The notes under the pieces were generated by a model. It saw nothing but the letters and a program-made list of their open reading frames with translations. It searched no databases and was not told where the DNA came from. From contig JAYTSD010000017.1 in the NCBI GenBank assembly GCA_043745805.1, positions 160,001 through 224,000 of the forward strand: a stretch of 64,000 nucleotides of DNA. Direction: 5' to 3'. Position numbers and translations under genes: made by a program. Shown piece after piece: positions 35,587-59,763 of the stretch. The stretch's first letter is position 1. Every line of letters begins with the position of its first letter. Origin of the DNA: Fibrobacteria bacterium. GTDB taxonomy: Bacteria; Fibrobacterota; Fibrobacteria; UBA11236.

Positions 35587-36567
35587 ATGAAATTTAGAAC
35601 ATTGGGGAAAACGGGAATTAGTATTTCCGAAATCGGTTTTGGTGCCTGGGCCCTGGGTGGAGCAATGTGGGCTGGCCAAAATGATGACGATTCATTACAA
35701 GCCTTACAACACGCAATCAGCAAGGGTGTCAATTTTATTGATACCGCTGCCGGTTATGGTAATGGACATAGTGAAAAAGTTATTGGAAAATTCTTAAGCG
35801 GGCAAAAAGAAAAAATTTGGGTTGCAACGAAAATACCTCCCGCAGCAGGTTCTTGGCCCCCTTCGCCCTATGATAAAATAGAAGACTGTTATCCCGAAAA
35901 ATATATACGCGAAATGGTGGAAGAACGTCTGCGTTATCTCAATGTGGATTGCATTGATATTTTACAATTGCATACTTGGACCAGGGCGTGGAATAAAAAC
36001 CCCAAAGCTTTGGATACCTTACGTAAAATTCAAGCCGAAGGGAAAATCAAACATATTGGTATATCTACTCCTGAACAGGATCAAAATAGCCTCATTGAAT
36101 TGATGAGAAAAGGTTATCTCGATGTTGTACAAGTGATTTACAATCTCTTTGAACAAGAGCCTGCTGCCGAATTTTTGCCTGCGGCTTTAGAAGCAAAAGT
36201 AGGTGTCATTGTGCGCGTGGCCTTTGATGAAGGTTCGCTTACCGGTAAATTTACTGTCGATTCAAAATTTGCCGAAGGTGATTTTCGTGCCGACTATTTT
36301 CATGGCGATCGCTTTCCACGTACCGTACGTCGCGTGGAATTAATTAAAAAAGATTTAGTGGGTTCTGGTTATACCATGCCACAAGCGGCTTTGAAATTTG
36401 TATTGGCGCATCCTGCTGTTGGAGTAGTTATTCCTGGCATACGTAATATTGCACAAGCCGAGGCTAATACTTCGGTTTCGGATATGACGCCGATGCCTCA
36501 AAGCTTACTCGAAAAATTACATGCACATAATTGGTTACGAGGAAACTGGTATCCGGGAAATTTATAA
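35587..36567 (+). CDS. Aldo/keto reductase
   Basis: LGKTG..ISEIGFG, FIDTAAGYG.GHSE, VATK, LQLH, IGIS, VIPG. Confidence 0.92.
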   Translation: MKFRTLGKTGISISEIGFGAWALGGAMWAGQNDDDSLQALQHAISKGVNFIDTAAGYGNGHSEKVIGKFLSGQKEKIWVATKIPPAAGSWPPSPYDKIEDCYPEKYIREMVEERLRYLNVDCIDILQLHTWTRAWNKNPKALDTLRKIQAEGKIKHIGISTPEQDQNSLIELMRKGYLDVVQVIYNLFEQEPAAEFLPAALEAKVGVIVRVAFDEGSLTGKFTVDSKFAEGDFRADYFHGDRFPRTVRRVELIKKDLVGSGYTMPQAALKFVLAHPAVGVVIPGIRNIAQAEANTSVSDMTPMPQSLLEKLHAHNWLRGNWYPGNL

Positions 36568-45369: not shown

Positions 45370-46356
45370 TCATTTGCTTTTAGTAGATGGATTTGTAGCC
45401 TTTAGTATTTCGTCTAAACCTATCTCCACCGTAAAGCGATGTGTTTGTCCTAGTGACAACTCACTGCTTTGACTGGTCTGAAACGCATACTGTACAGCTA
45501 CTCCAGAAAAATTAAAACCCAATCCTCCGGTGAATAGCATATTGTCTCGGCTATTTTGAAATATACTATTGGCCCCACCTCGCACAAAAATGCTCCAATT
45601 ATCTTTGGAGAAACCATACTCCAAACCACCAAAGCCTTTATAATTGCTCGCTACACCATTTATTCCTTCGGTGTATTCCACATCTTTTTTGTTGGCAATA
45701 TCCGTGGCCACAGTAATCTGATGATGAGCATTGCTCCAAATATAACCCAAACCGTAGCGCAGTTCCGGTTCAATTTTATCACCCATCATATCGGCGCCTA
45801 ATGAATGCCCAGCAATACCGAAGCGAAAACCATATGGAAATTGCGTGAGAAATCCTAAATCAAAACCTGTTCCCGCACCATTATCGTTACCGCTGCTCAG
45901 CACATAGCGATTAATACTCACACCTATACTGGTATGTTGAAAGCCCAATAAGTTGTCCCAAAGCTCACGACCACCAGCTAACGAGAAATCATGCTCGACC
46001 CAATTATTCGTTTTGTAAGTATCGGTATTACCTTCTTCCAAATTTGCGTACTGCATCAACCAGCCACCTGCTAAAACTCCCACACCACTGATAGGAAATA
46101 CACTGTTGAAATAATTCACATTCAATCCGGATATATCCTTCAGCAACCAATTCGTTTCCGAAAAAGTAATTCCTTTGATTTGAGGAAGCCCTGCTGGATT
46201 CCAATAAGTGGCCGAGGCATCATTTGCGATGGCGACAAATGCCCCGCCCATACCAAAGCCGCGTGTTCCCATTTGTAAATCCAATGGTTTGGAAATACTA
46301 TATGTTACGCTGAGGGAAATGCCCAATAAGAGTCGAAGCCAATTTTTGTTTTGCAT
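45370..46356 (-). CDS. PorV/PorQ-family outer-membrane beta-barrel (T9SS-associated)
   Basis: GTRGFGMGGAFVAIANDASATYWNPAGL N-terminus, GFDLG, C-terminal LGQTHRFTV; AAGGAGG RBS. Confidence 0.8.
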   Translation of the reverse strand: MQNKNWLRLLLGISLSVTYSISKPLDLQMGTRGFGMGGAFVAIANDASATYWNPAGLPQIKGITFSETNWLLKDISGLNVNYFNSVFPISGVGVLAGGWLMQYANLEEGNTDTYKTNNWVEHDFSLAGGRELWDNLLGFQHTSIGVSINRYVLSSGNDNGAGTGFDLGFLTQFPYGFRFGIAGHSLGADMMGDKIEPELRYGLGYIWSNAHHQITVATDIANKKDVEYTEGINGVASNYKGFGGLEYGFSKDNWSIFVRGGANSIFQNSRDNMLFTGGLGFNFSGVAVQYAFQTSQSSELSLGQTHRFTVEIGLDEILKATNPSTKSK

Positions 46357-46365
46357 AGTCCCTCC

Positions 46366-49300
46366 TTATTTCTTCACCAGCCCAAGGGGCTTGCGGATGA
46401 GTTGTGAAATTTTGCCATCATCAGATACGTATTTAAAGACATAAACATAAAGTCCTGCACCTGCGAATTTGCCGGATACATTTTGCCCATCCCATTCTTC
46501 TGAAAATGTGCCAGCACTTTTTACCGTTTGCAAAGGAATGATTTCCCTGGCCATATCACCTGCTAAATCAAGAATATGCAAGGATACTTTTCCTGCCGCA
46601 GGCAATTGATAATTGAATACCGCAGGTTGATTTTGATGGATAGGATTGTGATTCCAATATACCTTAAGTTTGGTGGGAAGGGGCGCGATATCCGAAGCTA
46701 GATCATATAGGGTAAAATGATTTACAGTTACCGTAACACGATGGTTAATTAAGTCGCGACTTGACTCTCCCGCTTTGACCCACGTAGAACCATCCCAAAA
46801 AACAATGCTCAGGGTTTTGGGGTCAATATCGGGAATACCATCTTGGTTTTTATCCAAATCCGCTTCAGTATACGATAAAGTAAGTGTTACAGGTTTACGG
46901 AATATGGTTTTATCCGGTCCATATTCATGGGGCACGCCTAAAAGCTTAATTTGGTTGTCCAAAGGTTTTGGCTCTTCGATAGGATCCACAATACGAACTG
47001 TTACCTCCAGAGGATGGTATAAAGATTGGGCTGGGATAGTTACCCCGCTGCCATCAGGGCTAGTAATGGTGGCCGCAGAATCGGGCTTCACTAAAACGGT
47101 GACCTTCGGTTCAATAAATGTTACTTCGCCGGATACTGTATCGATATTCCCTGCCCTATCTCCCGTAACTAAGAGGATACGGTTTTTTCCCGGCACCAAA
47201 TTAATGATGCGGCTGAATTTTCCTTGGTCCAACGGAATACCGTTAGGACTGTTGTTAACATGCGCAGCACTATCATTGAGCACAACTAAGTTCACAAAGG
47301 CCATGCCTGAGCCTCCGCTATCGCTAAAATTGCCCTTCATCACCAATTTTTCGCTATATACTTCCCCGTGCACACTATCCGCTCCGCGTACAGGTTTAGG
47401 AAGCAAATTGAATACAGCAATAGGTGCAATATTGTCCAGTACCACAAAGCTTTGTAAGGTGGTATCATTGCCCAAAGCATCACGTCCACGTAAGGAATAA
47501 AGAATTGCTCCTGAAGTATCATTGTTAACATTCACAGTTGTGCTAAACACATTGTCACCCGCCACTAAGTCACCGTTCAAACCGTCATCATGCATAATTA
47601 AGGTTTGAGGAGTCGTCGCAATTTTCGCTGTGTATAACACCATCGCAGAATCCTTATCTAAGCCAGCAATATAATCCAAGCCTAGGGCCGAAATTACGAG
47701 TGGCAAACCTTTTTTACTTATGCTGCCATTATCAGGATAGCGCACCGAAGGCATGCTAATTTTTGGGGCGGAATTATCAATTTGCATAGAGACGATAGAG
47801 GACAAACCATTTTTTCCACTGCCATCCGTGCTACGTATTTGTAATGTGAAAGCCCCATCTTTAAATAATCGCGTATCCCAATTAAAGGTGGAATCCGACG
47901 CAACTTGCCAAGCGCCACCCGCTAAAGCAATTTCATTTTTAACAATGACATCGGGCGCTACAGCCTTAGCCTTAAAGCGTACTGTCGTTAAACCGTTCAC
48001 TAAAGCCGCCGGAGTTGGGTTATTAATAGTTACCGTAGGCGCATTGCGAATATTAAACTTCACAATCGTGGAGAAAGCCGTCTTGCGATTGCTATCGCGC
48101 ACCTGTAATTGCAATTGATGCGCCCCTTCAGTTAGAGCACGAGTGTCTAGGATCAAAGTTGAATCTGTATTCGTAGCTCGCCAGTTACCTCCATCCAGAG
48201 CATAAAAAGTCGAATCTACAAGTGCAGGCGCCATGGCTGATGCGTTGAAAAGCAAAGCTAGTTGCCCAGACACTGTCGAATCCGCCAAAGTTGTCAATAA
48301 GCGAATACTTGGAGCATTTTTACTGAGAACGGTAACCAGTAAAGACCAACCGACTTTAGCATTATTATCCGTGCTTTTAATTTGGAAAGTATGCGAACCG
48401 TCGATCCAAGCCACAGTAACCACGCTATCAACACCCGCAAGGCTCAAGGATGCATTCGCCTTACCGTCGACGTATAAAGAATCTGTAGCAATTGTCGCAA
48501 TGCCTTTAGGCGTAACGGTGTAGGTCAGGGCAACTTTTCCGGAGACCGCAGATCCAGCTATGGGCGTGGTTAACACAACAGTGGGTCCATTCTGTATCAA
48601 ATAACTTACAACTTGGGAAGTCGCTTGCCCACCAGCGGTATTGGTTACCCTGATTTGTACCGTATGATTTCCTTCACTTAAATTCGCCGTATTCCAGGTA
48701 TGCGTTGTTGTCGTAGTCGTAGCAATATAGGCCGCACCATCAATAGATATTTCCGTAACCGTGATGCTACCTGAACCTGCTGTAGTTGTAAAGGCTATAG
48801 TTTGCGTTCCTGAAAGCGTACTACCTGGAGTGGGTGTGCTTAAGCTGACAGTAGGTAAACTGCTGCTACCGCTGCCATTACCAATGGTCAAGGGTACTAA
48901 ACGATCCAAGGCTAAACCACGAATATTGGTTACGCGAAAAATTAAAGTGTCGGATCCGTTGGCCAGATTGGTTACGTTCCAAGATCCAGACCACTCCCCT
49001 GCCCTAGCAATTCGAGTTAAATCAATTTTAGTGGTGGTATCCGATGCACGAAAATATTTTACCGAAACAATGGAATCTACACCTGAACCTGCTAAACCAT
49101 TATCCTGCGCAAAGACACGCAAATTCACAACACCTTCTACGGTTGCATCATCGACCGGAAAAATCACTTGGGAATAGGGTGCGCCTAATTGTAATTCTGG
49201 CCAACCAATTGAGGAATATATACCCCCATTATTATCCAAAATCACACCATCGCTATTGGGAGAATATTCCCAATAATAATCCGCTACGGCTCCCGCTTTG

Positions 49301-50649
49301 GCATCATGATAACGGATGAAAAATCCCATCGGAGAATTTGCAGAAAAGTTTAGATCTTGTGCATCACCCGTGCGGTTAATTTGGAATTCGTATTCATAAT
49401 TTCCTGCTGCAAAACGTTTACCCATTGCTGTTTGACCTGCCGCCACATCAGCGATCCAACTTGTTGCCCCCCAATGTTGATCGTTCGCTAGCACAAAAGC
49501 ATTTTCCGTCGCTTTCAATGCATTTTCTTTGCCTGCATCTAGGATATAATTTCGCACCGCACTTGGACTGGTGGCATAACTTTGTTCTTGATAAACGATG
49601 CAAGTATCACCCGCATCATTAGTAGGATCCACTACTTTAAGACCTACATAAATATTTTTATTGGTAACATCTTCCACAGAGTAAAGTGTGGCCGGTAAAG
49701 TATGCCCATTAAAATCTGTTAGCGTGATACTGCGGCGATATGATCCACGCCAAGCATCATCGGGGGTCGTACCACCGGAAATATTGCCATCGATAATAGG
49801 ATTGCCATTGGCATTGAAGGTGGAATAAAAAGTGAGAAAAGATCGTTTCACACCTAAACGTAAATCAGCCCAACCGGGCAATGAATCAGGGCGTGTTTTA
49901 GAACGATTAGTTTCAATCCAGTTATAAGTTTTATTTCCGCCTTGTTCAAAGGCTTCAATATATAACCCTAATTCCTGGTTATTGGTTACATTGAGATAGG
50001 AATTATTATCATTAATGGTATTTCCATTCAAGGGAATTTTATATTCCGCTTGTACAAAGGAAGATCCTAAATTACTTCCCGATCCGCTAAATACGGCTGC
50101 ATTAGTATTGGCTATCCAAGTCGTACCATTATAGGATCCTTCCTCCTTGGTATTATTATTCGGAAATACTTTTGCATAGTATTCTGCATTATTTATTCCG
50201 GCTCCACCACCTTGCAAAAGATCATCATGATTGCCTCCACCTATGCCTTGATCAAAATGTAGGGTAAGGTAATTTCCTACTGCGGAATTGCTTAAGTTAG
50301 TCGTAATACCAACATAGAGATAATTATCATCATTCATTAAATAAAGCGTTGCAAGTGCAGAATCCGCACCACTCGCTGTTTTCAATCGCACTTGGCGTAC
50401 AAAAGCATTTTTCCACTCATCATATTCTACACCGGCAGATCCAAGCGGTGCATTATTGGTTTTGTCCGTAACACTACCGTTAATTTTAGGGGGAACGCTT
50501 GTGTAAGCACTGTATAATTGTAGAGCTTTGCCTTGTCCGTCCGAAATATGTGCAAAAGATGCTGGGGCGAGTATCGCTATACATCCAAAGCTTGCGCATA
50601 ATGTTTTCCGTATCGTGTGATGAAACGTTTTTTTACATCCGCCTGTCAT
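46366..50649 (-). CDS. Giant secreted protein: two DOMON/CBM9-like domains, Ig-like repeats, DDG Ca-type repeat, ZU5-like domain, FlgD-type C-terminal domain
   Basis: PKING/PIIDG...LYVG...EY.I units; PTV...P..G...SG...WNT....G.H repeats; MHDDGLNGDLVAGDNVFS; YGP...FRKPVTLTLSY...VNHFT; NP...YQLP...ILDLAG...WDG...GLYVY. AAGGAGG RBS before ATG 50649. Confidence 0.8.
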   Translation of the reverse strand: MTGGCKKTFHHTIRKTLCASFGCIAILAPASFAHISDGQGKALQLYSAYTSVPPKINGSVTDKTNNAPLGSAGVEYDEWKNAFVRQVRLKTASGADSALATLYLMNDDNYLYVGITTNLSNSAVGNYLTLHFDQGIGGGNHDDLLQGGGAGINNAEYYAKVFPNNNTKEEGSYNGTTWIANTNAAVFSGSGSNLGSSFVQAEYKIPLNGNTINDNNSYLNVTNNQELGLYIEAFEQGGNKTYNWIETNRSKTRPDSLPGWADLRLGVKRSFLTFYSTFNANGNPIIDGNISGGTTPDDAWRGSYRRSITLTDFNGHTLPATLYSVEDVTNKNIYVGLKVVDPTNDAGDTCIVYQEQSYATSPSAVRNYILDAGKENALKATENAFVLANDQHWGATSWIADVAAGQTAMGKRFAAGNYEYEFQINRTGDAQDLNFSANSPMGFFIRYHDAKAGAVADYYWEYSPNSDGVILDNNGGIYSSIGWPELQLGAPYSQVIFPVDDATVEGVVNLRVFAQDNGLAGSGVDSIVSVKYFRASDTTTKIDLTRIARAGEWSGSWNVTNLANGSDTLIFRVTNIRGLALDRLVPLTIGNGSGSSSLPTVSLSTPTPGSTLSGTQTIAFTTTAGSGSITVTEISIDGAAYIATTTTTTHTWNTANLSEGNHTVQIRVTNTAGGQATSQVVSYLIQNGPTVVLTTPIAGSAVSGKVALTYTVTPKGIATIATDSLYVDGKANASLSLAGVDSVVTVAWIDGSHTFQIKSTDNNAKVGWSLLVTVLSKNAPSIRLLTTLADSTVSGQLALLFNASAMAPALVDSTFYALDGGNWRATNTDSTLILDTRALTEGAHQLQLQVRDSNRKTAFSTIVKFNIRNAPTVTINNPTPAALVNGLTTVRFKAKAVAPDVIVKNEIALAGGAWQVASDSTFNWDTRLFKDGAFTLQIRSTDGSGKNGLSSIVSMQIDNSAPKISMPSVRYPDNGSISKKGLPLVISALGLDYIAGLDKDSAMVLYTAKIATTPQTLIMHDDGLNGDLVAGDNVFSTTVNVNNDTSGAILYSLRGRDALGNDTTLQSFVVLDNIAPIAVFNLLPKPVRGADSVHGEVYSEKLVMKGNFSDSGGSGMAFVNLVVLNDSAAHVNNSPNGIPLDQGKFSRIINLVPGKNRILLVTGDRAGNIDTVSGEVTFIEPKVTVLVKPDSAATITSPDGSGVTIPAQSLYHPLEVTVRIVDPIEEPKPLDNQIKLLGVPHEYGPDKTIFRKPVTLTLSYTEADLDKNQDGIPDIDPKTLSIVFWDGSTWVKAGESSRDLINHRVTVTVNHFTLYDLASDIAPLPTKLKVYWNHNPIHQNQPAVFNYQLPAAGKVSLHILDLAGDMAREIIPLQTVKSAGTFSEEWDGQNVSGKFAGAGLYVYVFKYVSDDGKISQLIRKPLGLVKK

Positions 50650-50861
50650 CGACGCCTCCTTATCATTTTTTTTATCTGGACTCAAAACTCATATAGTAAG
50701 CTTATTTGATTTTTGAATTGGAAATGAGATTCTCTAAAATTGATTATCTAATAGATGAATCTCTTATTACTAGGTAAGATTTTAAAATTGGATATTTTTT
50801 TTGATGTAAGTATTACCGAAATAACTATCCTGATTTCCCAATCAAAAAAATATCTATAACA

Positions 50862-50886
50862 ATTGGAAGCAAGGTTGATGCCTAAA
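50862..50886 (-). promoter_or_regulatory. Sigma-54 (-24/-12) promoter of the giant protein / porV-like unit
   Basis: Minus strand TTTAGGCATCAACCTTGCTTCCAAT: GGCA...TTGCT with exact GG-N10-GC spacing; 21/25 identical to 58985-59009. Confidence 0.8.
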
Positions 50887-50943
50887 AGAATTGGGCGAAA
50901 TTTGTTTAATTGAGTCTATATTAAATTCAAGTAAAAAAAAAGA

Positions 50944-50961
50944 TGAGGCTATTTCACCCCA
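50944..50961. promoter_or_regulatory. Candidate activator binding box 1
   Basis: TGAGGC-TATTTC-ACCCCA, variant of TGGGGT-N6-ACCCCA. Confidence 0.65.
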
Positions 50962-51034
50962 CATTCAGTTAGAAATTTCTTTATAAATATTTTAATCCTA
51001 TATAAACCAAGACTTTAGCAAGCCGTAATAATTG

Positions 51035-51052
51035 TGTAGTGATTTGACCCCA
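51035..51052. promoter_or_regulatory. Candidate activator binding box 2
   Basis: TGTAGT-GATTTG-ACCCCA. Confidence 0.6.
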
Positions 51053-51201
51053 AAAGTCTAAACGAATCGACGACTCTTACTCTATAGTATGTTAATCCTC
51101 TGCTTATTTTTTTCTTATAAAGAAATTTATGCCTTCCTCATTATTATTGACCTATTTTTCTCCGGGTTAAAACAGATGTTAAAGGAGCAAGGAACTTGCC
51201 A

Positions 51202-51620
51202 ATGAACAAAGAAAAAATTTAGTCTCTTGGAGCGGAGGCAAGGATAGTAGCCTAGTGCTGCACGAATTAATTCAGTCCGGTAAATATGCGATCGAAGCTC
51301 TGCTTTGCGTAATCAAAGAAAAAGATCAGAGTATTAATATGCATGGAGTACCCGTTGGAAAAGTACTGATGCATTATTCCGAATTGGGTATAAATAAAAC
51401 AGCCTATGGAGATTTGTTTTTAGAAGCTCTTCCACCAAGTATTGATCGTTGAGGAGAGAATAGGGAATTTCATCCCTTTGTTTTTAATGGCCCGCTCTTT
51501 AAAAATCCCGTAGGTTTCCAAGCGGCTGCTTCGGTTTTGCAACACTTCCGTGACGGAGCTCATGAATTTCTTTTAGGGTTTTGCGATCTAATACCATTAG
51601 AATTTAATACCGTATCTTAG
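51202..51620 (+). pseudogene. Decayed Dph6/MJ0570-like ATP pyrophosphatase (PP-loop) gene
   Basis: ATG 51202 reads MNKEKI*, then a frameshift into LVSWSGGKDS...MHGV...AYGDLFLE; in-frame TGA at 51450; continues GENREFHPFVFNGPLFKNPV...FCDLIP; much shorter than intact members. Confidence 0.8.
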
Positions 51621-51752
51621 TAGTTACCTTCTCTTCAATGGAAATGCAAAAAATTTGCGGGCAATGTTTGCAAAGCGAAATAGAAAATGATAAATTTGGC
51701 TGAACCTCAGGATGCTTTTTGCAATGGTTAACTGGATTGGAAATAGCGTAAA

Positions 51753-53582
51753 TTATTTGCGATAATCGTCGGCGCGTAAATCCGCTTCTTCCATTAATTT
51801 CATCAGCCATTTGCGATCTACATCCAACATTTTAGCAGCTAGCGAAACATTGCCAGCAGTTTTACCTAGCGCCTCTGCAATCGCCTTTTTATCTGCTTGC
51901 TGTCGAACTTCTTTTAAGGTCGTCTGGCCAAAGCCATTTTCGGTAGGAGCATCTCCCCAATCCCATTGCAAATCCTCTGGGCGAATTTGTTGTGTATTGG
52001 AAAAGAGCACAGCCTTTTGCATAATATTTTCAAGCTCGCGAATATTACCGGGAAACCTATAGGTCAATAATTTATTACGTGCTGCAACAGAAAAGGTTTT
52101 AAGAGGTAAACCGAACTGTTGCAGATATTTTTTGAGCAGATAATCGGCCAAGAGCAAAATATCCTGACCACGCTCACGCAGAGGGGGAAGTAGCAAGCCC
52201 AAAACCGATAAACGGAAAAACAAATCTTGCCGAAAGCGCCCTTCCTGAATTTCTTTGGACAAATCCCTATGGGTAGCACAAACGATACGTACGTCCACGG
52301 TTATGGGCTTCGTGCTGCCTATGCGCGTCACTTCGCCTTCTTGTAATACCCTTAACATTTTCACTTGCAAAGAAAGAGGTAGTTCGCCTATTTCATCCAA
52401 AAATAAAGTGCCTTGATGCGCGGATTCAAAAAGACCGACTTTGCGTTGATCGGCACCGGTAAACGATCCTTTTTCATGCCCGAATAATTCTGATTCAATA
52501 AGATTAGCCGGTATAGCGCCACAGTTAAGAGCAACAAAGGTTTTATCCATGCGTTTGGAATTTTCATGCACATAGCGTGCTAGTAATTCCTTTCCCGTTC
52601 CCGTTTCTCCTCGAATAAGCACCGTTGCATCGGTTTTAGCGATGCGTGCGGCTAACTCCATCATCCCTAGCATGGCGGGACTGGCGTAAATCATTCCGCC
52701 CTTTGATTCCATACTCACCTTTTGCAAGCGTTCTATGGTTTCCTTTTGCCTTTGCGCTTCCCCATGGCGGGATAAAATTTCTCCGAAAAGTTTACTCAAG
52801 GTATCACAAAGTAAACGTTCTTTTTCGGTAAAAGGAATGCCGCCACCCAACCTATCCATATAAAGATACCCCAAAGTATCCCCGCCTTCGCGCAAGGCCA
52901 CACATAAGATTGAAGCAATATCATTGGTACGCAAAGAGCTTAAAGAGTTTTTGTCTTCCCATTCGCCTTCATGAAGCAATACAGCATGGCTAGAGGCTTT
53001 AGCCCAATCGATAGCTCGATCGGAAAATCTTTCTAAACCGCTATGCATGGGGTAACGTGCAATAGTATGTCGCAATCCATTCGTCTTATCTTCTATCACA
53101 ACCCGAGCCGCATCGCAACGTAACAAACGAGATACTCCAGATACTAAAGGTGTAAATACATCCGCACCTCTTTCTCGCAACAATTCCACTAAGGCTTCGA
53201 TTAACTCCCCTAGAGGAGCTGACATTTCATCATGATTTATAGGGCTTTCCCCTATTGGAAAGGTATCCGTTTCATTTATAGGCTTATCTAGGTAATGGTA
53301 ACGTGATATTCCTAATTCCAAGTGATCGCCATGCACAAGTGCTAAGGCTTCAGTAACTTTGACTCCATTACATTTGATAACGCTATCCGCAGTAACTACT
53401 TGTAAAAAATATTTACCTTCCCGAAACAAAAAATGTCCCATTCTCTCTTTTAGCCCTTTTCCTTGCAATTGTAAATTGCAATCCCTGGAAGTGCCAAAAG
53501 TAATCAGGCGACCAGAAAGCACAAAGTCAGCCTCTCCATTTTCCAATTTAAGCAATGGATATTGATGGGTTGGCATAATCAA
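51753..53582 (-). CDS. Sigma-54 enhancer-binding protein, FHA-GAF-AAA+-HTH
   Basis: FHA-like N-terminus (NGVKV...LVHGDHLELG), GAF, GETGTGKE, ESELFGHEKGSFTGA, LFLDEIGE, FPGNIRELEN, Fis-type HTH GNVSLAAKMLDV. Confidence 0.92.
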   Translation of the reverse strand: MIMPTHQYPLLKLENGEADFVLSGRLITFGTSRDCNLQLQGKGLKERMGHFLFREGKYFLQVVTADSVIKCNGVKVTEALALVHGDHLELGISRYHYLDKPINETDTFPIGESPINHDEMSAPLGELIEALVELLRERGADVFTPLVSGVSRLLRCDAARVVIEDKTNGLRHTIARYPMHSGLERFSDRAIDWAKASSHAVLLHEGEWEDKNSLSSLRTNDIASILCVALREGGDTLGYLYMDRLGGGIPFTEKERLLCDTLSKLFGEILSRHGEAQRQKETIERLQKVSMESKGGMIYASPAMLGMMELAARIAKTDATVLIRGETGTGKELLARYVHENSKRMDKTFVALNCGAIPANLIESELFGHEKGSFTGADQRKVGLFESAHQGTLFLDEIGELPLSLQVKMLRVLQEGEVTRIGSTKPITVDVRIVCATHRDLSKEIQEGRFRQDLFFRLSVLGLLLPPLRERGQDILLLADYLLKKYLQQFGLPLKTFSVAARNKLLTYRFPGNIRELENIMQKAVLFSNTQQIRPEDLQWDWGDAPTENGFGQTTLKEVRQQADKKAIAEALGKTAGNVSLAAKMLDVDRKWLMKLMEEADLRADDYRK

Positions 53583-54949
53583 TTCAAGTCTTTCGATGAT
53601 CTTTGTGCAAGCATACTGAAAGTTTTTCTTTGAAAAGGAAGCAATGACATTTTCTCTATTTGCAAATCATGGCCCATTTTATCGCGACAAAACAAAATGT
53701 GAGTTCCAAAAACAACTGGAATTCCTACACGTGCCGTAGCAGGTATTAATAGTCGTTGATCTATAAATAAACGATCACACGATTCAGGGTTTTCAATATA
53801 AACCCAACCGGAAAGTTGATTTTGCCCGTGCACCATTTCTTTTAATCGCAAACCTTTTGTTAAATGTTCATTTGATTTATGGGGTAACACGAGTAAGACT
53901 CTTGATTCCTTATTTGCAGAAGTTACTGCAAAAGTTCGTACTTTAGCTGATTGTTTACCGAAATAAAAAGCCAAAGCTAAAGCCGACATGAATCCCAATA
54001 ATATTCCCACACTCCATATTTTTTTTATTCGATTCTTGCGTTGCGAAATACTCGGAAATTGCTCCATCATTTTTAATGCTTCGAGTGAATCCGGATTTTC
54101 TTCTAAGCATTCAGAGAGTAACCAATAAGCTTCTTCCTCCCGTTTAGCAAAAAGAAGATTTTTCGTCGCTTGCATAAGATGCACCGATAATTCTTGAGCC
54201 GTGAACTGTCCGATTAATATTTTCCAATCACTAGAATGGCGAGGAGCTAATTTTGTTTCCCATTCAGTCCAAAATTGAAACGCAGATTCCGGCCTCCGTA
54301 AAGGATTGTCAGCCAATAAAGCGGTAATGGGAATTTCCCATTCTGAACCTAGATCCAATTGGCGCAAAATTCTACCCAAAGCAAATAAATCTGCTTTCAT
54401 AAAATTTATAGCATCACGATCTTCCCATAATTCTGGAGCCATATAGGCTGGAGTTCCCTTTACAGCATCCACAATAGATCGTTTACCTCCATCCATTTTT
54501 TTTGCAAAACCAAGGTCTACCAGATAAATACCATCTTTGGGAGATATTAAAATATTTGCTGGCTTTAAATCACGATGGGCAAAGCCCAAACGATGTAAGC
54601 TTGCCAGAGCAGAAATAATCGCGGAAGCCAGTACTGAAGGATCCCATTGTGGTAAATCTTTTTCCAAAATGGAAAAAAGTGAAACGCCCTTAATCCATTC
54701 CATGACGATGCAAACTTGTTGCCCCCAAATGAAAGCATCGTAAATATCTGGAATACATCCCAAGGGCATTTGCGCTTGAATTTTTGCTTCCTTCAATAAC
54801 TCTTCGCGACGTAAAGGATTCTTTTCTGATAAAATTTTAATGGCTACCCATCGATCAAGTGCAGTTTGGCGCACACGATATACTGAAGAAAAAGAACCTT
54901 CCCCTATTGTCATCGGATGCGAAAATCCTTTGGGCAATTTTGGGATCAT
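53579..54949 (-). CDS. Membrane-anchored Hanks-type Ser/Thr protein kinase
   Basis: IGEGSFS, VAIK, HRDLKPAN, DLG, GTPAYMAPE, DLFALG; TPR-like helix, one TM, C-terminal PEGA-like segment. ATG 54949 overlaps the upstream stop. Confidence 0.9.
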   Translation of the reverse strand: MIPKLPKGFSHPMTIGEGSFSSVYRVRQTALDRWVAIKILSEKNPLRREELLKEAKIQAQMPLGCIPDIYDAFIWGQQVCIVMEWIKGVSLFSILEKDLPQWDPSVLASAIISALASLHRLGFAHRDLKPANILISPKDGIYLVDLGFAKKMDGGKRSIVDAVKGTPAYMAPELWEDRDAINFMKADLFALGRILRQLDLGSEWEIPITALLADNPLRRPESAFQFWTEWETKLAPRHSSDWKILIGQFTAQELSVHLMQATKNLLFAKREEEAYWLLSECLEENPDSLEALKMMEQFPSISQRKNRIKKIWSVGILLGFMSALALAFYFGKQSAKVRTFAVTSANKESRVLLVLPHKSNEHLTKGLRLKEMVHGQNQLSGWVYIENPESCDRLFIDQRLLIPATARVGIPVVFGTHILFCRDKMGHDLQIEKMSLLPFQRKTFSMLAQRSSKDLN

Positions 54950-55617
54950 GGATTTTCTCTTAATTTGCTTTCCGCAAAAGCAAACCAATAAATAATATCT
55001 TCATTTTGCGGCATTGCTCGTAAAGCTTTTAACCAGTGATCATGCGCTGGCTTAAATTCACCGGCTTGCCAAAGTATCATGCCTAAATTAAAATGAGCTG
55101 AAGCATCATTACTATCTAGTTGAAGTACTTTTGCAAATAAGTTTTTCGCTTTAGAAACTTCTCCCAGTTTGCCGTAAATTATACCCGCAAGATTTAATGG
55201 TTGAACATTATGCGGTGCACGTTCAGTAGCCTTGGCTAAAGCAGAAAGAGCTGACAAAGTGTCGTTTTGATTCAAGCAAATGCGAGCCTTTTCTGTATAG
55301 ACATCTGCTAATAAACTCGATAAATCTTCCGTTGGATGTAAACTCCTACACGCTTCAAACTGAACTAAAGCATATGCAAATGCTGAACTATCTGCTTCTG
55401 CGGTTGCTTTTTGTAATAATGCTTTACCTAAACCCAGACGTGCCAAATAATCTTCAGGATTTTCTTCTACGGCTCGAATAAAAAATTGTGAAGCTAAAGG
55501 ATAATCTCCTAAATCCAAACAAGCATAGCCTTTTTCTAAAACTGAATTTTGACAACCATTAACGATAAACAAAATGATTAACAAACCATGAAATGTAAGT
55601 TGCTTTATTTGTTTCAT
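54946..55617 (-). CDS. TPR lipoprotein
   Basis: Lipobox VNGC, multiple TPRs (ARLGLG, NLAGIIY, AHFNLG). ATG 55617 in TAATG overlap. Confidence 0.8.
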   Translation of the reverse strand: MKQIKQLTFHGLLIILFIVNGCQNSVLEKGYACLDLGDYPLASQFFIRAVEENPEDYLARLGLGKALLQKATAEADSSAFAYALVQFEACRSLHPTEDLSSLLADVYTEKARICLNQNDTLSALSALAKATERAPHNVQPLNLAGIIYGKLGEVSKAKNLFAKVLQLDSNDASAHFNLGMILWQAGEFKPAHDHWLKALRAMPQNEDIIYWFAFAESKLRENP

Positions 55618-57209
55618 TATGAACCCCAAGACTTATTCCATTTAACCGCCGCAGAATATTCTTTGTGCGGAATCCAAATGGCTGCATCTTGTGACAAGTT
55701 GGACCATGTTCTAAACATATTAAATTCTAAAGTTAGGTAACCCCAATTCATTAAAGAGCGCTTTAAATTAAATCCTATTTGAGCCCGTTGATCGATGCGT
55801 TTTTTAATTTTATGCAAAGCCGACGAGGAACTATAATATTCCTTTATACCACCATTTTCCACTCGCAATAGAGAACTATAATATTTTCCATCTACTTGAT
55901 TCAAAACTAAGCTCCGAAAACTTTGCGCTGCAGTTGAAGAAGCCGATTGCGGTATTTTCGCCTCCAGCCATGTATAGGATTTGGGATAAATTGTCAAAGC
56001 GTAACCGCTATTGATCTCTCCAATCCAATTCCAATATAGTGGGTGCGTATAGGAAAGGTTCGGAAAAATACTGATAAAACTTTGTGGTGAAATGGCAGAA
56101 GAAATGCTTCCAGGATCATTAGTATAGAGTTGATAAGCCGTAATTTTTTGATAGGGAATACTATCTTGAAATTGATTGTCCTTAAAATGAGTCGGACGGG
56201 GCTTTGAAACGTCATCGACATATAAAAGAGGAATTTTTTCAACTGCTTGATCGACTTGTACTCCGAAAAAAGAAAATAACCAAGCAAAGCCTTTCCCTTT
56301 TTGTAAAAAACCATCATGATACCAAGTTAGCCATCCGGAAGTGAAACGCTTATCTCCATGAGAATTATATTCCGATTCAATGCCTGCATTTGCAAGCATA
56401 AGTCTTTCTTCAGAAATATTGAGATAAGATATTTCCGTGCGGTAAGAATAAACATGTCCTATACTTGTTACCTGTCCCATTTGGCCTGCCAGCGTGAGCG
56501 AAAGACTGTCCCAAATATGTTCGACTTTAAATTTTAAATTGATACGATAATCGAGAGAATCATAGTAATAGTTTTTTCCAATTTCATAACCCACTCCGCT
56601 ACTTAAAGGAAAACGCTTGGGAGATAATAGCGGCCATAACAAATTTCCTTGCTGTTTAAAAAGCCAACCCGTCGAATTGAGTCCTTCTGGAGATTGCGAA
56701 AAAGGGTAATCATATGCCGTAAAATAATTTTCTCGATCATAACCTGAACTCCATTTCAAATCCCATTGTGGAATACGGTTTTCTTCAGGAATAAGTTTTT
56801 GTGGCAAGGAATCACGGAGCTGCGCCGCTTCAATCGACAATCCAGCAATACTGTATAATTTATATCGCTGCTGCAAAACCATATTTCGCATAGGTTGGAA
56901 AGCGGGCGTTCGAATCGTCAGATTAAAAGCCATTGCAGTGTCATAGGAACATTTTCCAAAAGCTGCTTCAGCAAGAAAATAGTATAAGCTGTCTAACGAC
57001 ATTCCATGCTGATAAGCCTGCATAAAATAATCTTGTGCCAAATCATTTTGACCCTTTTGTAAAGCTTGTTGACCCAGCTCCAAAACTTTTTCCACCGATT
57101 TGGAATTTTCTGATAAAGGTATAAAGCCAGATTTTTCCGCGTGCGAAATTGTTCCAACAGATAAATAAACCAATAAAAAAAATATCAGTATGCCAGACAT
57201 ACTATTCAT
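55617..57209 (-). CDS. Exported TPR plus probable outer-membrane beta-barrel protein
   Basis: Signal peptide, N-terminal TPR, then aromatic beta strands ending YSAAVKWNKSWGS. Confidence 0.6.
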   Translation of the reverse strand: MNSMSGILIFFLLVYLSVGTISHAEKSGFIPLSENSKSVEKVLELGQQALQKGQNDLAQDYFMQAYQHGMSLDSLYYFLAEAAFGKCSYDTAMAFNLTIRTPAFQPMRNMVLQQRYKLYSIAGLSIEAAQLRDSLPQKLIPEENRIPQWDLKWSSGYDRENYFTAYDYPFSQSPEGLNSTGWLFKQQGNLLWPLLSPKRFPLSSGVGYEIGKNYYYDSLDYRINLKFKVEHIWDSLSLTLAGQMGQVTSIGHVYSYRTEISYLNISEERLMLANAGIESEYNSHGDKRFTSGWLTWYHDGFLQKGKGFAWLFSFFGVQVDQAVEKIPLLYVDDVSKPRPTHFKDNQFQDSIPYQKITAYQLYTNDPGSISSAISPQSFISIFPNLSYTHPLYWNWIGEINSGYALTIYPKSYTWLEAKIPQSASSTAAQSFRSLVLNQVDGKYYSSLLRVENGGIKEYYSSSSALHKIKKRIDQRAQIGFNLKRSLMNWGYLTLEFNMFRTWSNLSQDAAIWIPHKEYSAAVKWNKSWGS

Positions 57210-57305
57210 ATCGAATTTTTAATTGTAATTTTATTTGCTAAGACCAAAGAATCTTTTCTTAAACAATGTGTTACCGTTAAAAAAATACTTATCAAAAGGA
57301 CAAAA

Positions 57306-57995
57306 TTATCTTGGCCGAGAAATAATGTATTGTAATGTCTGTTTCGATTTTCGTATTGGCTGCCCGGTTTGATTTTCCAAAAAATTTAGCTTCCGACCAA
57401 TTAGATTGAATGAGTTACTGGATAACTTTTCACTCGTCAAAAGTGGGGTGCCATGCGGGGCATGAATAGAAACCGTGGCGGTAGAAAACTGTATAGTGGA
57501 AATAATATCTGAATAATAAGTAACATTATTCGCCATATCTGTTGAATCTCCAATTGCATAAATCTCATATCCATAATTTCCATTTGCGGTATAGCGCAAG
57601 TATTCCGAATAAGTCGCGTCGCCGTTTCCAGGATAAAAGATTGAGTAGGCTTCTGGAGCCCAATAAGAATGCAGCTTAACACTTGCGGCGGAGTCATAAA
57701 AGGCAACGGATCCAAAGGGAAAGACAGAATTTTCCACAGCTAACATATAAGCAATAAATTGTGCCTGTGTCCAACTTTCGGCTGTTGGATAAGTGATTTT
57801 GTCGATTGAATATACAACCAAGGATAACTGTGATTTATGGGCTTTTGTTGAATCGCGAAAATAGTGTTGATTGGTTCTAGCCTTAATTTGCACCCAGTTT
57901 GTAGGTAAAATGATGGAATAACCGAGTGAGGCATCGGTGATAGTTTCAGCGAAAATTGAGGTAACAAATAATACCAGTACCACTAAAAATTTCAT
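57306..57995 (-). CDS. Secreted protein, PsbP-like fold possible, short basic C-terminal tail
   Basis: Signal peptide, GYSIILPTNW start, IISTIQF end of domain, tail VSI...FNLIGRK. Confidence 0.55.
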   Translation of the reverse strand: MKFLVVLVLFVTSIFAETITDASLGYSIILPTNWVQIKARTNQHYFRDSTKAHKSQLSLVVYSIDKITYPTAESWTQAQFIAYMLAVENSVFPFGSVAFYDSAASVKLHSYWAPEAYSIFYPGNGDATYSEYLRYTANGNYGYEIYAIGDSTDMANNVTYYSDIISTIQFSTATVSIHAPHGTPLLTSEKLSSNSFNLIGRKLNFLENQTGQPIRKSKQTLQYIISRPR

Positions 57996-58399
57996 TTTTG
58001 TAAATCCTTAAATTCTAATTTACGTTCTTCCTTTCTATTTTCCATATCTGCCATTGCCTTGTCAACTCGATTCTTTACTTCGGGTGGTAAATCTTTTAAT
58101 GCTTCTAGCTTTTTTTCATGGCGTTCTTTTGGTATGCCTTCAGAAGATGATTTCTTTTTTGTTTTTGATGGAGACTCCTTAATCAGAGGAGCTCGAGCAG
58201 AATCTACTTTTGCACGATTGTCTTCAGGAAGTTTTTTTAATATTTCTGCGTATAGTGCATCATACTTTACTTTAGTTGGAATCACAACGGGGGAGTTATT
58301 TTGCTTTTGAGTAATTGAATTATTTTCTGGATCAGCATTTGCAATTATCGCTAAACAAAGTAGGCTGGGTAAAATTTTAAGACAGTCTTGAAATCGCAT
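57992..58399 (-). CDS. Small exported charged helical protein (paralogue of 58496-58915)
   Basis: GAGG RBS before ATG 58399, signal peptide, LPEDNRAKV and LPPEVKNRV repeats. Confidence 0.65.
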   Translation of the reverse strand: MRFQDCLKILPSLLCLAIIANADPENNSITQKQNNSPVVIPTKVKYDALYAEILKKLPEDNRAKVDSARAPLIKESPSKTKKKSSSEGIPKERHEKKLEALKDLPPEVKNRVDKAMADMENRKEERKLEFKDLQK

Positions 58400-58495
58400 G
58401 TTAACCTCATTGTTACTAGAAAAAGGGAGAAATAACTTTCCCTTTTTCATACCTTAAATCAAAGAAGAATTTTAATTCCCTCTAATGCACAAAGC

Positions 58496-58915
58496 TTAAG
58501 GATTAGCTTTGGCATCCGCTTTTCTTTCATCCAAACGTTTAGTCACAACCTCTTTGGCCTTAGTTACCTTTTCTTTAGCAACATCAGGTAAGCCATTCAA
58601 TGCATCGATAGCTTTTTGTAGATTTAAAATCGCGGCAGCTTTTTTTTCTGTAATCGTAGCTTGAATTTCTTCTGGAGTTTTTCCGGAAGCCTTCATCGCA
58701 TCAATATCAGCTTTAGCAGCTTTAGCTGCAGCTTTAGCTGCAGCTATTTTATCAGCAACACCGGCAGGTAGGTTTTTCATGGCATCAGCAACTTTGGTGC
58801 TAGAAGTAGCCTTGCCCATTGAGTCTGCTGCTGGAGGAGTGCTAGGTTTGCCTTGTGCAAATACACCAGTAGCCAAAGCCATTCCTAAGGTAAGAGTCGT
58901 TAATAATGCTTTCAT
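58496..58915 (-). CDS. Small exported Ala/Lys-rich helical protein
   Basis: AAAGGA RBS, signal peptide ending VFA, LPAGVADKI and LPDVAKEKV repeats. Confidence 0.75.
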   Translation of the reverse strand: MKALLTTLTLGMALATGVFAQGKPSTPPAADSMGKATSSTKVADAMKNLPAGVADKIAAAKAAAKAAKADIDAMKASGKTPEEIQATITEKKAAAILNLQKAIDALNGLPDVAKEKVTKAKEVVTKRLDERKADAKANP

Positions 58916-58984
58916 AATTAATCCTTTTTGAATTGTTAAGAAGCCTTCATTTGTACGATTACTTCAAATCAGGCTTCTCTTTAT

Positions 58985-59009
58985 ATTGGAAGCAACCCTT
59001 ATGCCTAAA
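58985..59009 (-). promoter_or_regulatory. Sigma-54 (-24/-12) promoter of the kinase/activator operon
   Basis: Minus strand TTTAGGCATAAGGGTTGCTTCCAAT, exact GG-N10-GC spacing. Confidence 0.8.
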
Positions 59010-59066
59010 TAAAAACTTCATAATTAATCAAAAAAAGGCATGTTTAAAAAGGAATTCCTTATTTAA

Positions 59067-59084
59067 TGGGTTGTTTTAACCCCA
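59067..59084. promoter_or_regulatory. Candidate activator binding box 1
   Basis: TGGGTT-GTTTTA-ACCCCA. Confidence 0.65.
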
Positions 59085-59155
59085 ATAGGACTTCAAATCA
59101 TCAAGTATCATTGATAAGTCATTGAAAAATATGAGTTACACAAAACAAGCTTTCT

Positions 59156-59173
59156 TGGGGTGAAATGACCGCA
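59156..59173. promoter_or_regulatory. Candidate activator binding box 2
   Basis: TGGGGT-GAAATG-ACCGCA. Confidence 0.65.
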
Positions 59174-59199: not shown

Positions 59200-59763
59200 T
59201 CAAGAAAATAAATTCTGAAACAAGAAAAATGAACCGCATACCCCTAAGCCCAAACTAACATACCACAGAGGTTTTTTCTTCACCAGCACTGCAATAGCTG
59301 ACATGGCAATTGCGATCTGAAAAAATGTTACCCCGCGGGCAAGTACACTGTGTTGTGCTAAATGTTGTTCTCCTGATTTTTGTTTTTCTTCCGCTTTTTC
59401 TTGAATTTCTTTTTGTTCTTTTTTGTAATCGGAAATTTTTTCAATGTCTTCCTTAGAAGCTTGTTTTCCTAAGACGGTAAGCAATTCTAATTTATTGGAA
59501 AGTATTGCCGACTTAATACCTTTGGCTTGATAATACGACCATTGATCAGAAGCCTGTAATTGCTCAATCATCGCTTCATTAGCATGATGACCCGCTAATA
59601 AAGCAGCGATAGCGGCAAGCACAGCGAGCAAAGCTGAGCTTAATGCAACTTGCATAACCCAACTCACTCCATTTTTATGTCCCTCACCATGGCCCGCTTC
59701 ATGGGCGGCCTCATGAATATTTTCATGCAAATGTTCGGTGGGAACTTCGATTTCTTCCGGCAT
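59200..59763 (-). CDS. DUF4337-like membrane protein
   Basis: His-rich N-terminus, TM, ASDQWSYYQAKGIK, coiled coil, FQIAIAMSAIA and two TMs. Confidence 0.75.
   Translation of the reverse strand: MPEEIEVPTEHLHENIHEAAHEAGHGEGHKNGVSWVMQVALSSALLAVLAAIAALLAGHHANEAMIEQLQASDQWSYYQAKGIKSAILSNKLELLTVLGKQASKEDIEKISDYKKEQKEIQEKAEEKQKSGEQHLAQHSVLARGVTFFQIAIAMSAIAVLVKKKPLWYVSLGLGVCGSFFLFQNLFS

Follow-up and report, generated by a model that had tools for sequence, protein, structure and literature searches.

Within a 64,000-nt stretch of the genome of a Fibrobacteria bacterium (GCA_043745805.1, contig JAYTSD010000017.1, positions 160,001 to 224,000 of the forward strand; hereafter, the window), we analyzed the locus at window positions 45,370-59,173, which holds a candidate envelope-signalling cassette. 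The cassette is a run of seven minus-strand genes that encode two small exported proteins (P139 and P152), an exported protein with weak PsbP-like similarity (P229), a helical-domain protein with a predicted outer-membrane barrel (P530), a TPR lipoprotein, a membrane Hanks-type Ser/Thr kinase, and a sigma-54 activator, and it is accompanied by a second unit comprising a giant surface-type protein and a PorV-like partner (Table 1). A sequence-only reading of this DNA had proposed that such genes form a trans-envelope relay, and the gene content that it gave for the run at 58915-51753 was borne out: all seven genes were confirmed by coordinates and strand, and the TPR, kinase, and activator domains by a Pfam and NCBIfam scan of ten window proteins. 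Its claim that the last four genes have overlapping start and stop codons held for the lipoprotein/kinase junction, an ATGA overlap of the kind also seen at P152/P229, and for the barrel/lipoprotein junction (TAATG), while the kinase and activator genes either overlap (TTGA) or stand 2 nt apart, according to the start codon chosen.

Table 1. Features of the cassette locus and its surroundings, in window positions.
Feature	Position	Strand	Basis or remark
Distal enhancer-like palindrome TGCGGTCATTTCACCCCA of operon	59156..59173	-	one mismatch to TGGGG-N8-CCCCA; 167 nt upstream of promoter start
Proximal enhancer-like palindrome TGGGGTTAAAACAACCCA of operon	59067..59084	-	78 nt upstream of promoter start
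Sigma-54 type -24/-12 promoter AGGCAT-N5-TTGCTTCCAAT of seven-gene operon	58986..59006	-	pattern search
P139, small exported Ala/Lys-rich helical protein, operon gene 1	58496..58915	-	signal peptide
P152, second small exported helical protein	57992..58450	-	LPxxV...K(V/I) motifs in common with P139
P229, exported, weak PsbP-like similarity	57306..57995	-	PsbP 22.5 bits (cut-off 23.5)
P530, outer-membrane protein with N-terminal helical (TPR-like) domain and C-terminal beta-barrel	55617..57209	-	model, Foldseek, VIA-align
TPR lipoprotein, 227 aa	54946..55629	-	many TPR families; Cys26 behind hydrophobic leader
Membrane Hanks-type Ser/Thr kinase, 469 aa	53579..54988	-	Pkinase; likely start is the ATG at 54949
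Sigma-54 activator, 609 aa: FHA-fold, GAF, AAA+ (GSFTGA loop), HTH_8	51753..53582	-	Pfam, fold model
Distal palindrome TGGGGTCAAATCACTACA of giant-protein promoter	51035..51052	-	two mismatches; 169 nt upstream
Proximal palindrome TGGGGTGAAATAGCCTCA of giant-protein promoter	50944..50961	-	one mismatch; 78 nt upstream
Sigma-54 type promoter AGGCAT-N5-TTGCTTCCAAT of giant protein/PorV-like unit	50863..50883	-	pattern search
Giant surface-type protein, 1439 aa	46366..50685	-	Ig-like repeats, choice-of-anchor X, C-terminal FlgD_ig-like (T9SS-tail-like)
Putative PorV/PorQ-family outer-membrane protein	45370..46356	-	NF033709 87.4 bits (cut-off 90)
Frameshifted PP-loop ATPase remnant (SGGKDS motif), outside the system	51203..51600	+	read from sequence, no search

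The order of these genes was conserved well beyond the window. We compared 10 loci from named Fibrobacterota metagenome-assembled genomes (MAGs) with 20 more distant loci, one being common to both sets, such that 29 were distinct, and the five-gene core P229-barrel-lipoprotein-kinase-activator was present in the same order and on the same strand in 26 of these, representing several Fibrobacterota families. Specifically, the five-gene order was kept in eight of the 10 MAG loci, with the remaining two cut by contig ends, and the full seven-gene order from P139 to the activator was complete in six, the others being truncated at contig ends or more divergent. P530, the lipoprotein, the kinase, and the activator stayed together in 18 of the 20 distant loci (17 of those 18 with a detectable P229), and the other two were lone P530 paralogues. 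The gene-neighbourhood check that the sequence-only reading had called for therefore showed co-occurrence in both samples. The kinase adjoined the activator in all 26 cassette loci that reach that far, and a P229 gene was present in 25 of 26. Chance adjacency of the genes was rejected because synteny is conserved, and the cassette is well supported as a conserved unit.

A word-based search for P530 relatives recovered 10, and a profile search 175 representatives. Across a survey of 296 Fibrobacterota genomes, the P530 family was found in 60, with none among the 151 that belong to the largest family of the phylum. The named relatives, some of which come from cultured organisms, all belong to Fibrobacterota and are annotated as hypothetical or in generic terms.

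The kinase matched PF00069 with 131.5 bits (cut-off 31.7), and across 20 aligned sequences K51, H138, D140, K142, N145, D158, T179, and A184-P185-E186 were invariant, with R139 in at least 90%. Its kinase domain is followed by a TPR-like motif that is cytoplasmic and conserved, then by a single transmembrane helix and a beta-rich extracytoplasmic domain of ~125 aa, in which E445 and the terminal L450-P451-F452 were invariant. The 227-aa TPR protein was assigned as a lipoprotein because Cys26, located behind a hydrophobic leader, is conserved, in at least 90% of 23 sequences. The co-prediction of lipoprotein and kinase C-terminus proposed from the sequence alone gave an affirmative result, in that the lipoprotein and the extracytoplasmic domain co-folded with a score of 0.72, as against 0.01 for the best of three controls; the runs had at least 83% of contacts in common, and partner predicted local distance difference test (pLDDT) values were at least 68. 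Of 80 solved complexes, 58 attained the mark used for such co-folds, as did two of 110 mismatched pairs; these counts hold only roughly here because custom alignments were used. In the model, kinase residues L450-P451-F452 lie in a groove lined by invariant lipoprotein residues G41, Q73, N146, N181, and W215. The co-fold supports a contact between the lipoprotein and the kinase extracytoplasmic domain. The genome as a whole has about 16 Hanks kinases and one PP2C match, an unusual kinase-to-phosphatase ratio.

P530 matched no Pfam or NCBIfam family. An AlphaFold2 model built from 10 sequences (pLDDT 78) comprised a signal peptide, helices at residues 39-134, and ~20 strands at 148-529, and all Foldseek matches listed were outer-membrane barrels, the best being BcsC (E 9e-10) and PelBC (E 1e-8), both of which also have TPR domains. 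In VIA-align comparisons, residues 142-528 scored highest against CymA and OmpG (Z 20.6, 253-276 residues aligned), with lower scores to PgaA (Z 16.6), FadL and PorV (~15), and FapF (Z 13.9). Judged by its model, this 530-aa protein is an outer-membrane barrel, as had been read from the sequence, and the refuting outcome named there for this protein did not occur.

The small exported proteins at the head of the operon were less readily placed. P139 and P152 have signal peptides and are rich in Ala, Lys, and Glu; P139 was 62-74% identical across seven close loci, and translation of P152 probably begins further in, at the ATG of residue 18. P139 belonged to no family in the scan and gave only weak matches to Apolipoprotein and to Metal_resist (PF13801, ZraP/CpxP-like). 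Among 21 small-protein sequences, Metal_resist matched four (best E 0.016) and Apolipoprotein five, all far below cut-off. Profile searches against solved structures returned only insignificant helical matches for P139 and P152 (best E 0.022) and no match for P229, and in a feature search of the small proteins all scores were <0.8, such that no fold was assigned to any of the three. The PsbP model matched six of 24 P229 orthologues.

The activator matched PF00158 (Sigma54_activat) with 243.5 bits (cut-off 20.2), alongside GAF, HTH_8, and weak FHA/YscD-like matches, and had the Walker A/B motifs GETGTGKE and DEIGE and the loop GSFTGA. Its GAFTGA loop read G[AS]FTGA in 18 of 19 aligned activators, with GAFTNA in L019, and the HTH region was strongly conserved. 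Within the GAF domain D157, R160, R185-F186-S187, W208, C227, and Y241-D243-R244 were invariant, and within the FHA domain R25, T28, G30, and G56. The model of the latter (pLDDT 85) resembled GarA, OdhI, and EmbR in Foldseek (TMt 0.74-0.88 and root mean square deviation 1.7-2.3 Å for FHA-only chains, versus TMt 0.24 and 3.4 Å for the whole chain of EmbR), and the best structural match was GarA in complex with the kinase domain of PknB.

Elsewhere in the same genome (G000:C2:39324-43265, or L042:4325-8266), genes for a TPR lipoprotein, a Hanks kinase, and a sigma-54 activator of the FHA-fold/GAF type recur as a paralogous triad, preceded by the gene of a 577-aa exported protein and followed by that of a 215-aa exported Lys/Glu-rich protein. 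It contained neither a barrel nor a PsbP-like gene. The recurrence of lipoprotein, kinase, and activator indicates that these three are one functional unit, and the missing barrel points to them as the core, with the barrel and P229 as additions. The promoter regular expression found no match upstream of the triad, where one candidate seen by eye had the wrong spacing.

Both the operon and the giant-protein unit are preceded by the promoter-like sequence AGGCAT-N5-TTGCTTCCAAT and paired palindromes of the form TGGGG-N8-CCCCA, an architecture in common whose sigma-54 promoter part agrees with the one described in the sequence-only reading. The pattern AGGCAT-N5-TTGCTTCC occurred exactly twice in the 3.95-Mb genome, at the two window promoters, a count that is post hoc because the pattern was derived from those sites. 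Independent support came from the paired upstream palindromes, their matching distances, and their recurrence in other genomes. Specifically, 233 sites in the genome fit a loose sigma-54 pattern, 12 of which had at least one palindrome (with up to two mismatches) within 220 nt upstream, and only the two locus promoters had two, at -78/-167 for the operon and -78/-169 for the giant protein. Genome-wide, there were 47 palindromes with one mismatch and none that were perfect; three of the 47 fell within these two promoter regions.

Comparable arrangements were found in orthologous loci. All seven close ones had TGGCA[CT]-N5-TTGC at -58 to -93 relative to the ATG of the first gene, and each had two TGGGG-N8-CCCCA copies upstream of P139, and orthologous loci have the distal palindrome between about -160 and -172. 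The start-to-start spacing between proximal palindrome and promoter was 79-84 nt in 11 loci recovered by regular expression and seven more recognized by eye. Overall, of the 25 loci with the region present, at least 18 had palindromes and promoter ahead of the cassette, irrespective of G+C content. In seven loci from the more distant lineages (L016, L017, L021, L022, L024, L025, and L031), the -12 element, at the conserved distance from the palindrome, was TTGA or TTGT rather than TTGC. The genome has one rpoN gene and 15 strong sigma-54 activators, the one in the cassette included. From these patterns, the simplest reading is that the activator of the cassette would bind the palindromes and drive its own operon. 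The autoregulation and joint control of the giant/PorV unit posited earlier fit the shared promoter type and paired palindromes. An initial motif guess, TGGGGTNAA, was weakly enriched (six matches versus 2.7 expected) and was replaced by the full palindrome after comparison of orthologous upstream regions. At window position 35838, a third sigma-54-like site, accompanied by a single palindrome, falls within a plus-strand gene and was attributed to chance, and a scan for sigma-70 promoters and terminators yielded no excess of sites over shuffled sequence.

The giant protein matched Big_7 and choice_anchor_X; at its C-terminus, FlgD_ig was the only match (E 6e-4, below cut-off), and no Por_Secre_tail match was found in the Pfam and NCBIfam scan. 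Its partner matched PorV_fam over its whole length (residues 25-312), falling short of the cut-off of 90 bits, and scored far below the cut-offs of the PorV and PorV2 equivalog models. The genome encodes a SprA homologue (456 bits). Orthologues of the giant protein were present in eight of the 32 genomes of the family that were surveyed. Among seven in other genomes, one (L038) had the full promoter arrangement with the same 78-nt spacing and two more had one perfect palindrome each upstream. In L010, the giant/PorV pair was located directly ahead of P139. A further candidate target was a gene for a small Cys/His lipoprotein, which carried a second palindrome pair and promoter in L007, L008, L009, and L013, and which has no homologue in the genome studied here. 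No other neighbour recurred around the 29 loci. The lipoprotein is marked by the motif CH(I/L)PPGNP...AHL.HGD..G.C (for example, L008:7227-7913 and L010:10311-10980), and in L006 its gene is located within the cassette itself. All predicted regulon targets were exported proteins. The earlier idea that the system switches on a type IX secretion system (T9SS)-type surface protein fits, as regards joint control, the shared promoter arrangement in this genome, but the orthologues were found in eight of 32 genomes, and palindromes in front of three of seven. By its distribution and upstream sequences, the giant protein/PorV unit appears to be an occasional rather than a constant member of the regulon.

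Other features of the surroundings were not tied to the cassette. The activator gene and the giant-protein promoter lie 1 kb apart, and the presence of the PP-loop remnant over most of that distance suggests that a rearrangement brought the operon and the giant-protein unit together. Directly upstream of the operon enhancer is a minus-strand gene for a DUF4337 membrane protein (window positions 59200-59763, 130.8 bits), followed by ispG, and neither was kept beside the cassette in other loci.

The gene order, promoter and enhancer architecture, catalytic motifs, barrel and FHA folds, and co-fold are established computationally, whereas we infer that this activator binds the palindromes and that the kinase controls it, as well as the nature of the signal and the role of the barrel. 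We consider, with moderate confidence, that the locus encodes a self-activating envelope-signalling cassette that runs from a kinase to sigma-54 transcription; autoregulation is probable. In the mechanism proposed, the membrane Hanks kinase would grip the TPR lipoprotein via its extracytoplasmic C-terminal domain, and the lipoprotein, probably together with the TPR-barrel and the PsbP-like protein, would signal the state of the outer envelope. The kinase would then alter the co-translated FHA-fold/GAF activator, either by phosphorylation or by docking on the non-canonical FHA domain. The activator, in turn, would occupy the paired TGGGG-N8-CCCCA sites ~80 and ~165 nt upstream of sigma-54 promoters, switching on its own seven-gene operon, of which P139 and P152 are the first and presumably most expressed products. 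It would also induce a few exported or surface proteins that differ between lineages, represented here by the giant Ig-repeat protein and PorV-like partner. A more specific version, which we advance only tentatively and regard as doubtful, is a cell-surface signalling mode particular to environmental Fibrobacterota in which a bridge of TPR-barrel, PsbP-like protein, and TPR lipoprotein gates the Hanks kinase and then the sigma-54 activator via a phosphothreonine-blind FHA domain. If true, this would constitute an outside-to-promoter relay that operates without a histidine kinase or an extracytoplasmic function (ECF) sigma/anti-sigma pair and that governs variable surface proteins.

Several observations weigh against the self-activating cassette. 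The FHA assignment made from the sequence stands as a fold, but the Pfam FHA score (17.7 bits) was under the cut-off of 20.7, and the residues that bind phosphothreonine were missing: 18 of 19 sequences had Thr, Ser, Ala, or Gly in place of the loop Arg, and two alignments revealed neither a conserved Ser before His50 nor a conserved loop Asn. The textbook kinase/FHA mode can therefore not be assumed for the step from kinase to activator, for which phosphate-independent docking, direct phosphorylation, and GAF control are all possible routes; the GAF domain could make the activator dependent on a ligand and independent of the kinase. There is no phosphatase gene at the locus, the one PP2C match in the genome being elsewhere. 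The co-fold score is a measure of model confidence obtained with custom alignments, and the role of sensor first given to the barrel was not supported over that of an exporter. At the DNA level, the 14 other strong activators are alternative candidates for palindrome binding, the right half-sites of both giant-promoter palindromes are degenerate, and the terminator scan also flags the proximal one as a weak hairpin that runs into a T stretch. Additionally, four of the seven giant-protein orthologues in other genomes had no upstream palindrome of up to one mismatch, and two genomes with the giant protein lacked the barrel family, both falling among those four.

A second type of kinase-activator pairing in the genome (G000:C1:21464-25387, or L043:3465-7388) consists of a Hanks kinase gene with genes for a 239-aa membrane protein and for an activator that lacks GAF and whose FHA domain is canonical (60.3 bits), and this indicates that the loss of phosphothreonine-binding residues is specific to the lineage of the cassette's activator. 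On contig C50, another kinase adjoins a receiver-type activator.

Literature searches over main texts found no description of the cassette, in line with the initial impression that it is not a described system. Functionally, the nearest described system is the TagQ/TagR-PpkA-Fha1 threonine phosphorylation pathway of the Pseudomonas aeruginosa H1 type VI secretion system (H1-T6SS), in which a membrane Hanks kinase receives input on its extracytoplasmic part from a lipoprotein together with a periplasmic protein (PMC13713981). The pathway proposed for the cassette is alike in having an FHA-bearing cytoplasmic kinase target and in reporting on the state of the envelope, but the output of the Tag pathway is the post-translational assembly of the T6SS, with Fha1 as a canonical phosphothreonine reader, whereas that of the cassette would be transcription, via a sigma-54 activator with a degenerate FHA domain. 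Moreover, the cassette has a barrel in its operon and neither T6SS genes nor a phosphatase at the locus, and the two have no sequence relation, Pfam giving only general TPR and Pkinase families. For the output, the closest parallel is offered by FHA-domain enhancer-binding proteins of Myxococcus xanthus, reportedly treated by Jelsbak, Givskov and Kaiser in 2005. They, too, have FHA in place of a receiver domain and a presumed Ser/Thr kinase input, while the FHA domain of the cassette is non-canonical and followed by GAF; to our knowledge, no account of the Myxococcus activators places an outer-membrane barrel, a lipoprotein, and a kinase in the same transcript.

Other parallels concern single parts of the cassette. 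In ZraPSR and PspF/PspA, the gene of a small helical protein that protects the envelope lies next to those of its regulators and is under the control of a sigma-54 activator. Zra uses a histidine kinase and receiver domain and Psp protein-protein inhibition, and unlike the cassette these systems contain no Hanks kinase or FHA domain and no barrel or lipoprotein. FecA/FecR/FecI signalling passes from an outer-membrane barrel to a periplasm-spanning inner-membrane protein and an alternative-sigma promoter, and is autoregulated. The barrel of the cassette, in contrast, is not a TonB-dependent transducer, and a kinase and sigma-54 replace the anti-sigma and ECF sigma factors; no match to these three families was found among the ten proteins scanned. 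Finally, the N-terminal TPR-like helices, C-terminal barrel, and neighbouring TPR lipoprotein are reminiscent of BcsC, PelB/PelC, PgaA, and AlgK/AlgE, but P530 lacks a sequence-family match to these exopolysaccharide exporters and synthase neighbours, and its barrel is nearer to CymA/OmpG (Z 20.6 versus 16.6). The cassette belongs to none of the TagQ-PpkA-Fha1, Myxococcus FHA activator, Fec-type, or exopolysaccharide exporter systems.

That the exported half resembles such exporters raises the alternative that it is a secretion or assembly machine that exports or anchors small proteins or a polymer, with the kinase and activator only adjusting expression, perhaps by sensing the load of the machine through the lipoprotein. 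A TPR-barrel beside a TPR lipoprotein is the layout of exopolysaccharide outer-membrane modules, the best Foldseek matches of P530 were BcsC and PelBC, with PgaA and FapF further down the VIA-align scores, and P139, the first product after the promoter, is the best conserved. However, around the 29 loci no synthase or glycosyltransferase gene was conserved, the barrel was nearest to the 14-stranded channels CymA and OmpG, above the exporters, the paralogous triad manages without a barrel, and the conserved groove of the lipoprotein is predicted to hold the kinase, such that we find a machine of this type rather unlikely. The small proteins also admit a Zra/Psp/Cpx-like response to envelope stress, in which a Hanks kinase activated by damage or misfolding would stand in for the histidine kinase and in which P139 and P152 would be periplasmic chaperones, and possibly feedback inhibitors, like ZraP, CpxP, and Spy. 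This has in its favour the sigma-54 promoter driving small exported helical proteins beside their own sensor and activator, the weak Metal_resist and Apolipoprotein matches, and the response of the closest experimental analogue, TagQ/TagR-PpkA, to membrane damage (PMC13713981). Those family matches were nonetheless far below cut-offs, no solved structure matched significantly, and the other predicted targets, the giant Ig-repeat protein and PorV-like barrel, resemble surface functions rather than repair, and we regard a stress response as a possibility, though an unlikely one.

A different objection is that the kinase and activator are adjacent but uncoupled, a GAF-bound small molecule controlling the activator and the kinase having other substrates, as might be expected of an FHA domain without phosphothreonine-binding residues and a GAF domain with many invariant ones. 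Against such independence stand the adjacency of the two genes throughout the cassette loci and again in the paralogous triad, their close junction, and the strict retention of an FHA fold whose top match is GarA in complex with a kinase domain, and we consider it improbable. The self-activating signalling cassette remains the reading that we favour.

There are few cases in which outside signals are known to reach eukaryote-type kinases in diderm bacteria, and the feeding of kinases into sigma-54 transcription is known mostly from myxobacterial gene lists. Against this background, the cassette is a compact and testable system, with a defined enhancer, two promoters, and a predicted lipoprotein-kinase interface with named residues, as well as an FHA domain predicted not to read phosphothreonine. 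The palindrome provides a tool for regulon prediction in Fibrobacterota, and the cassette, which is widespread in environmental, polymer-degrading lineages of the phylum, may explain how surface proteins are regulated there.

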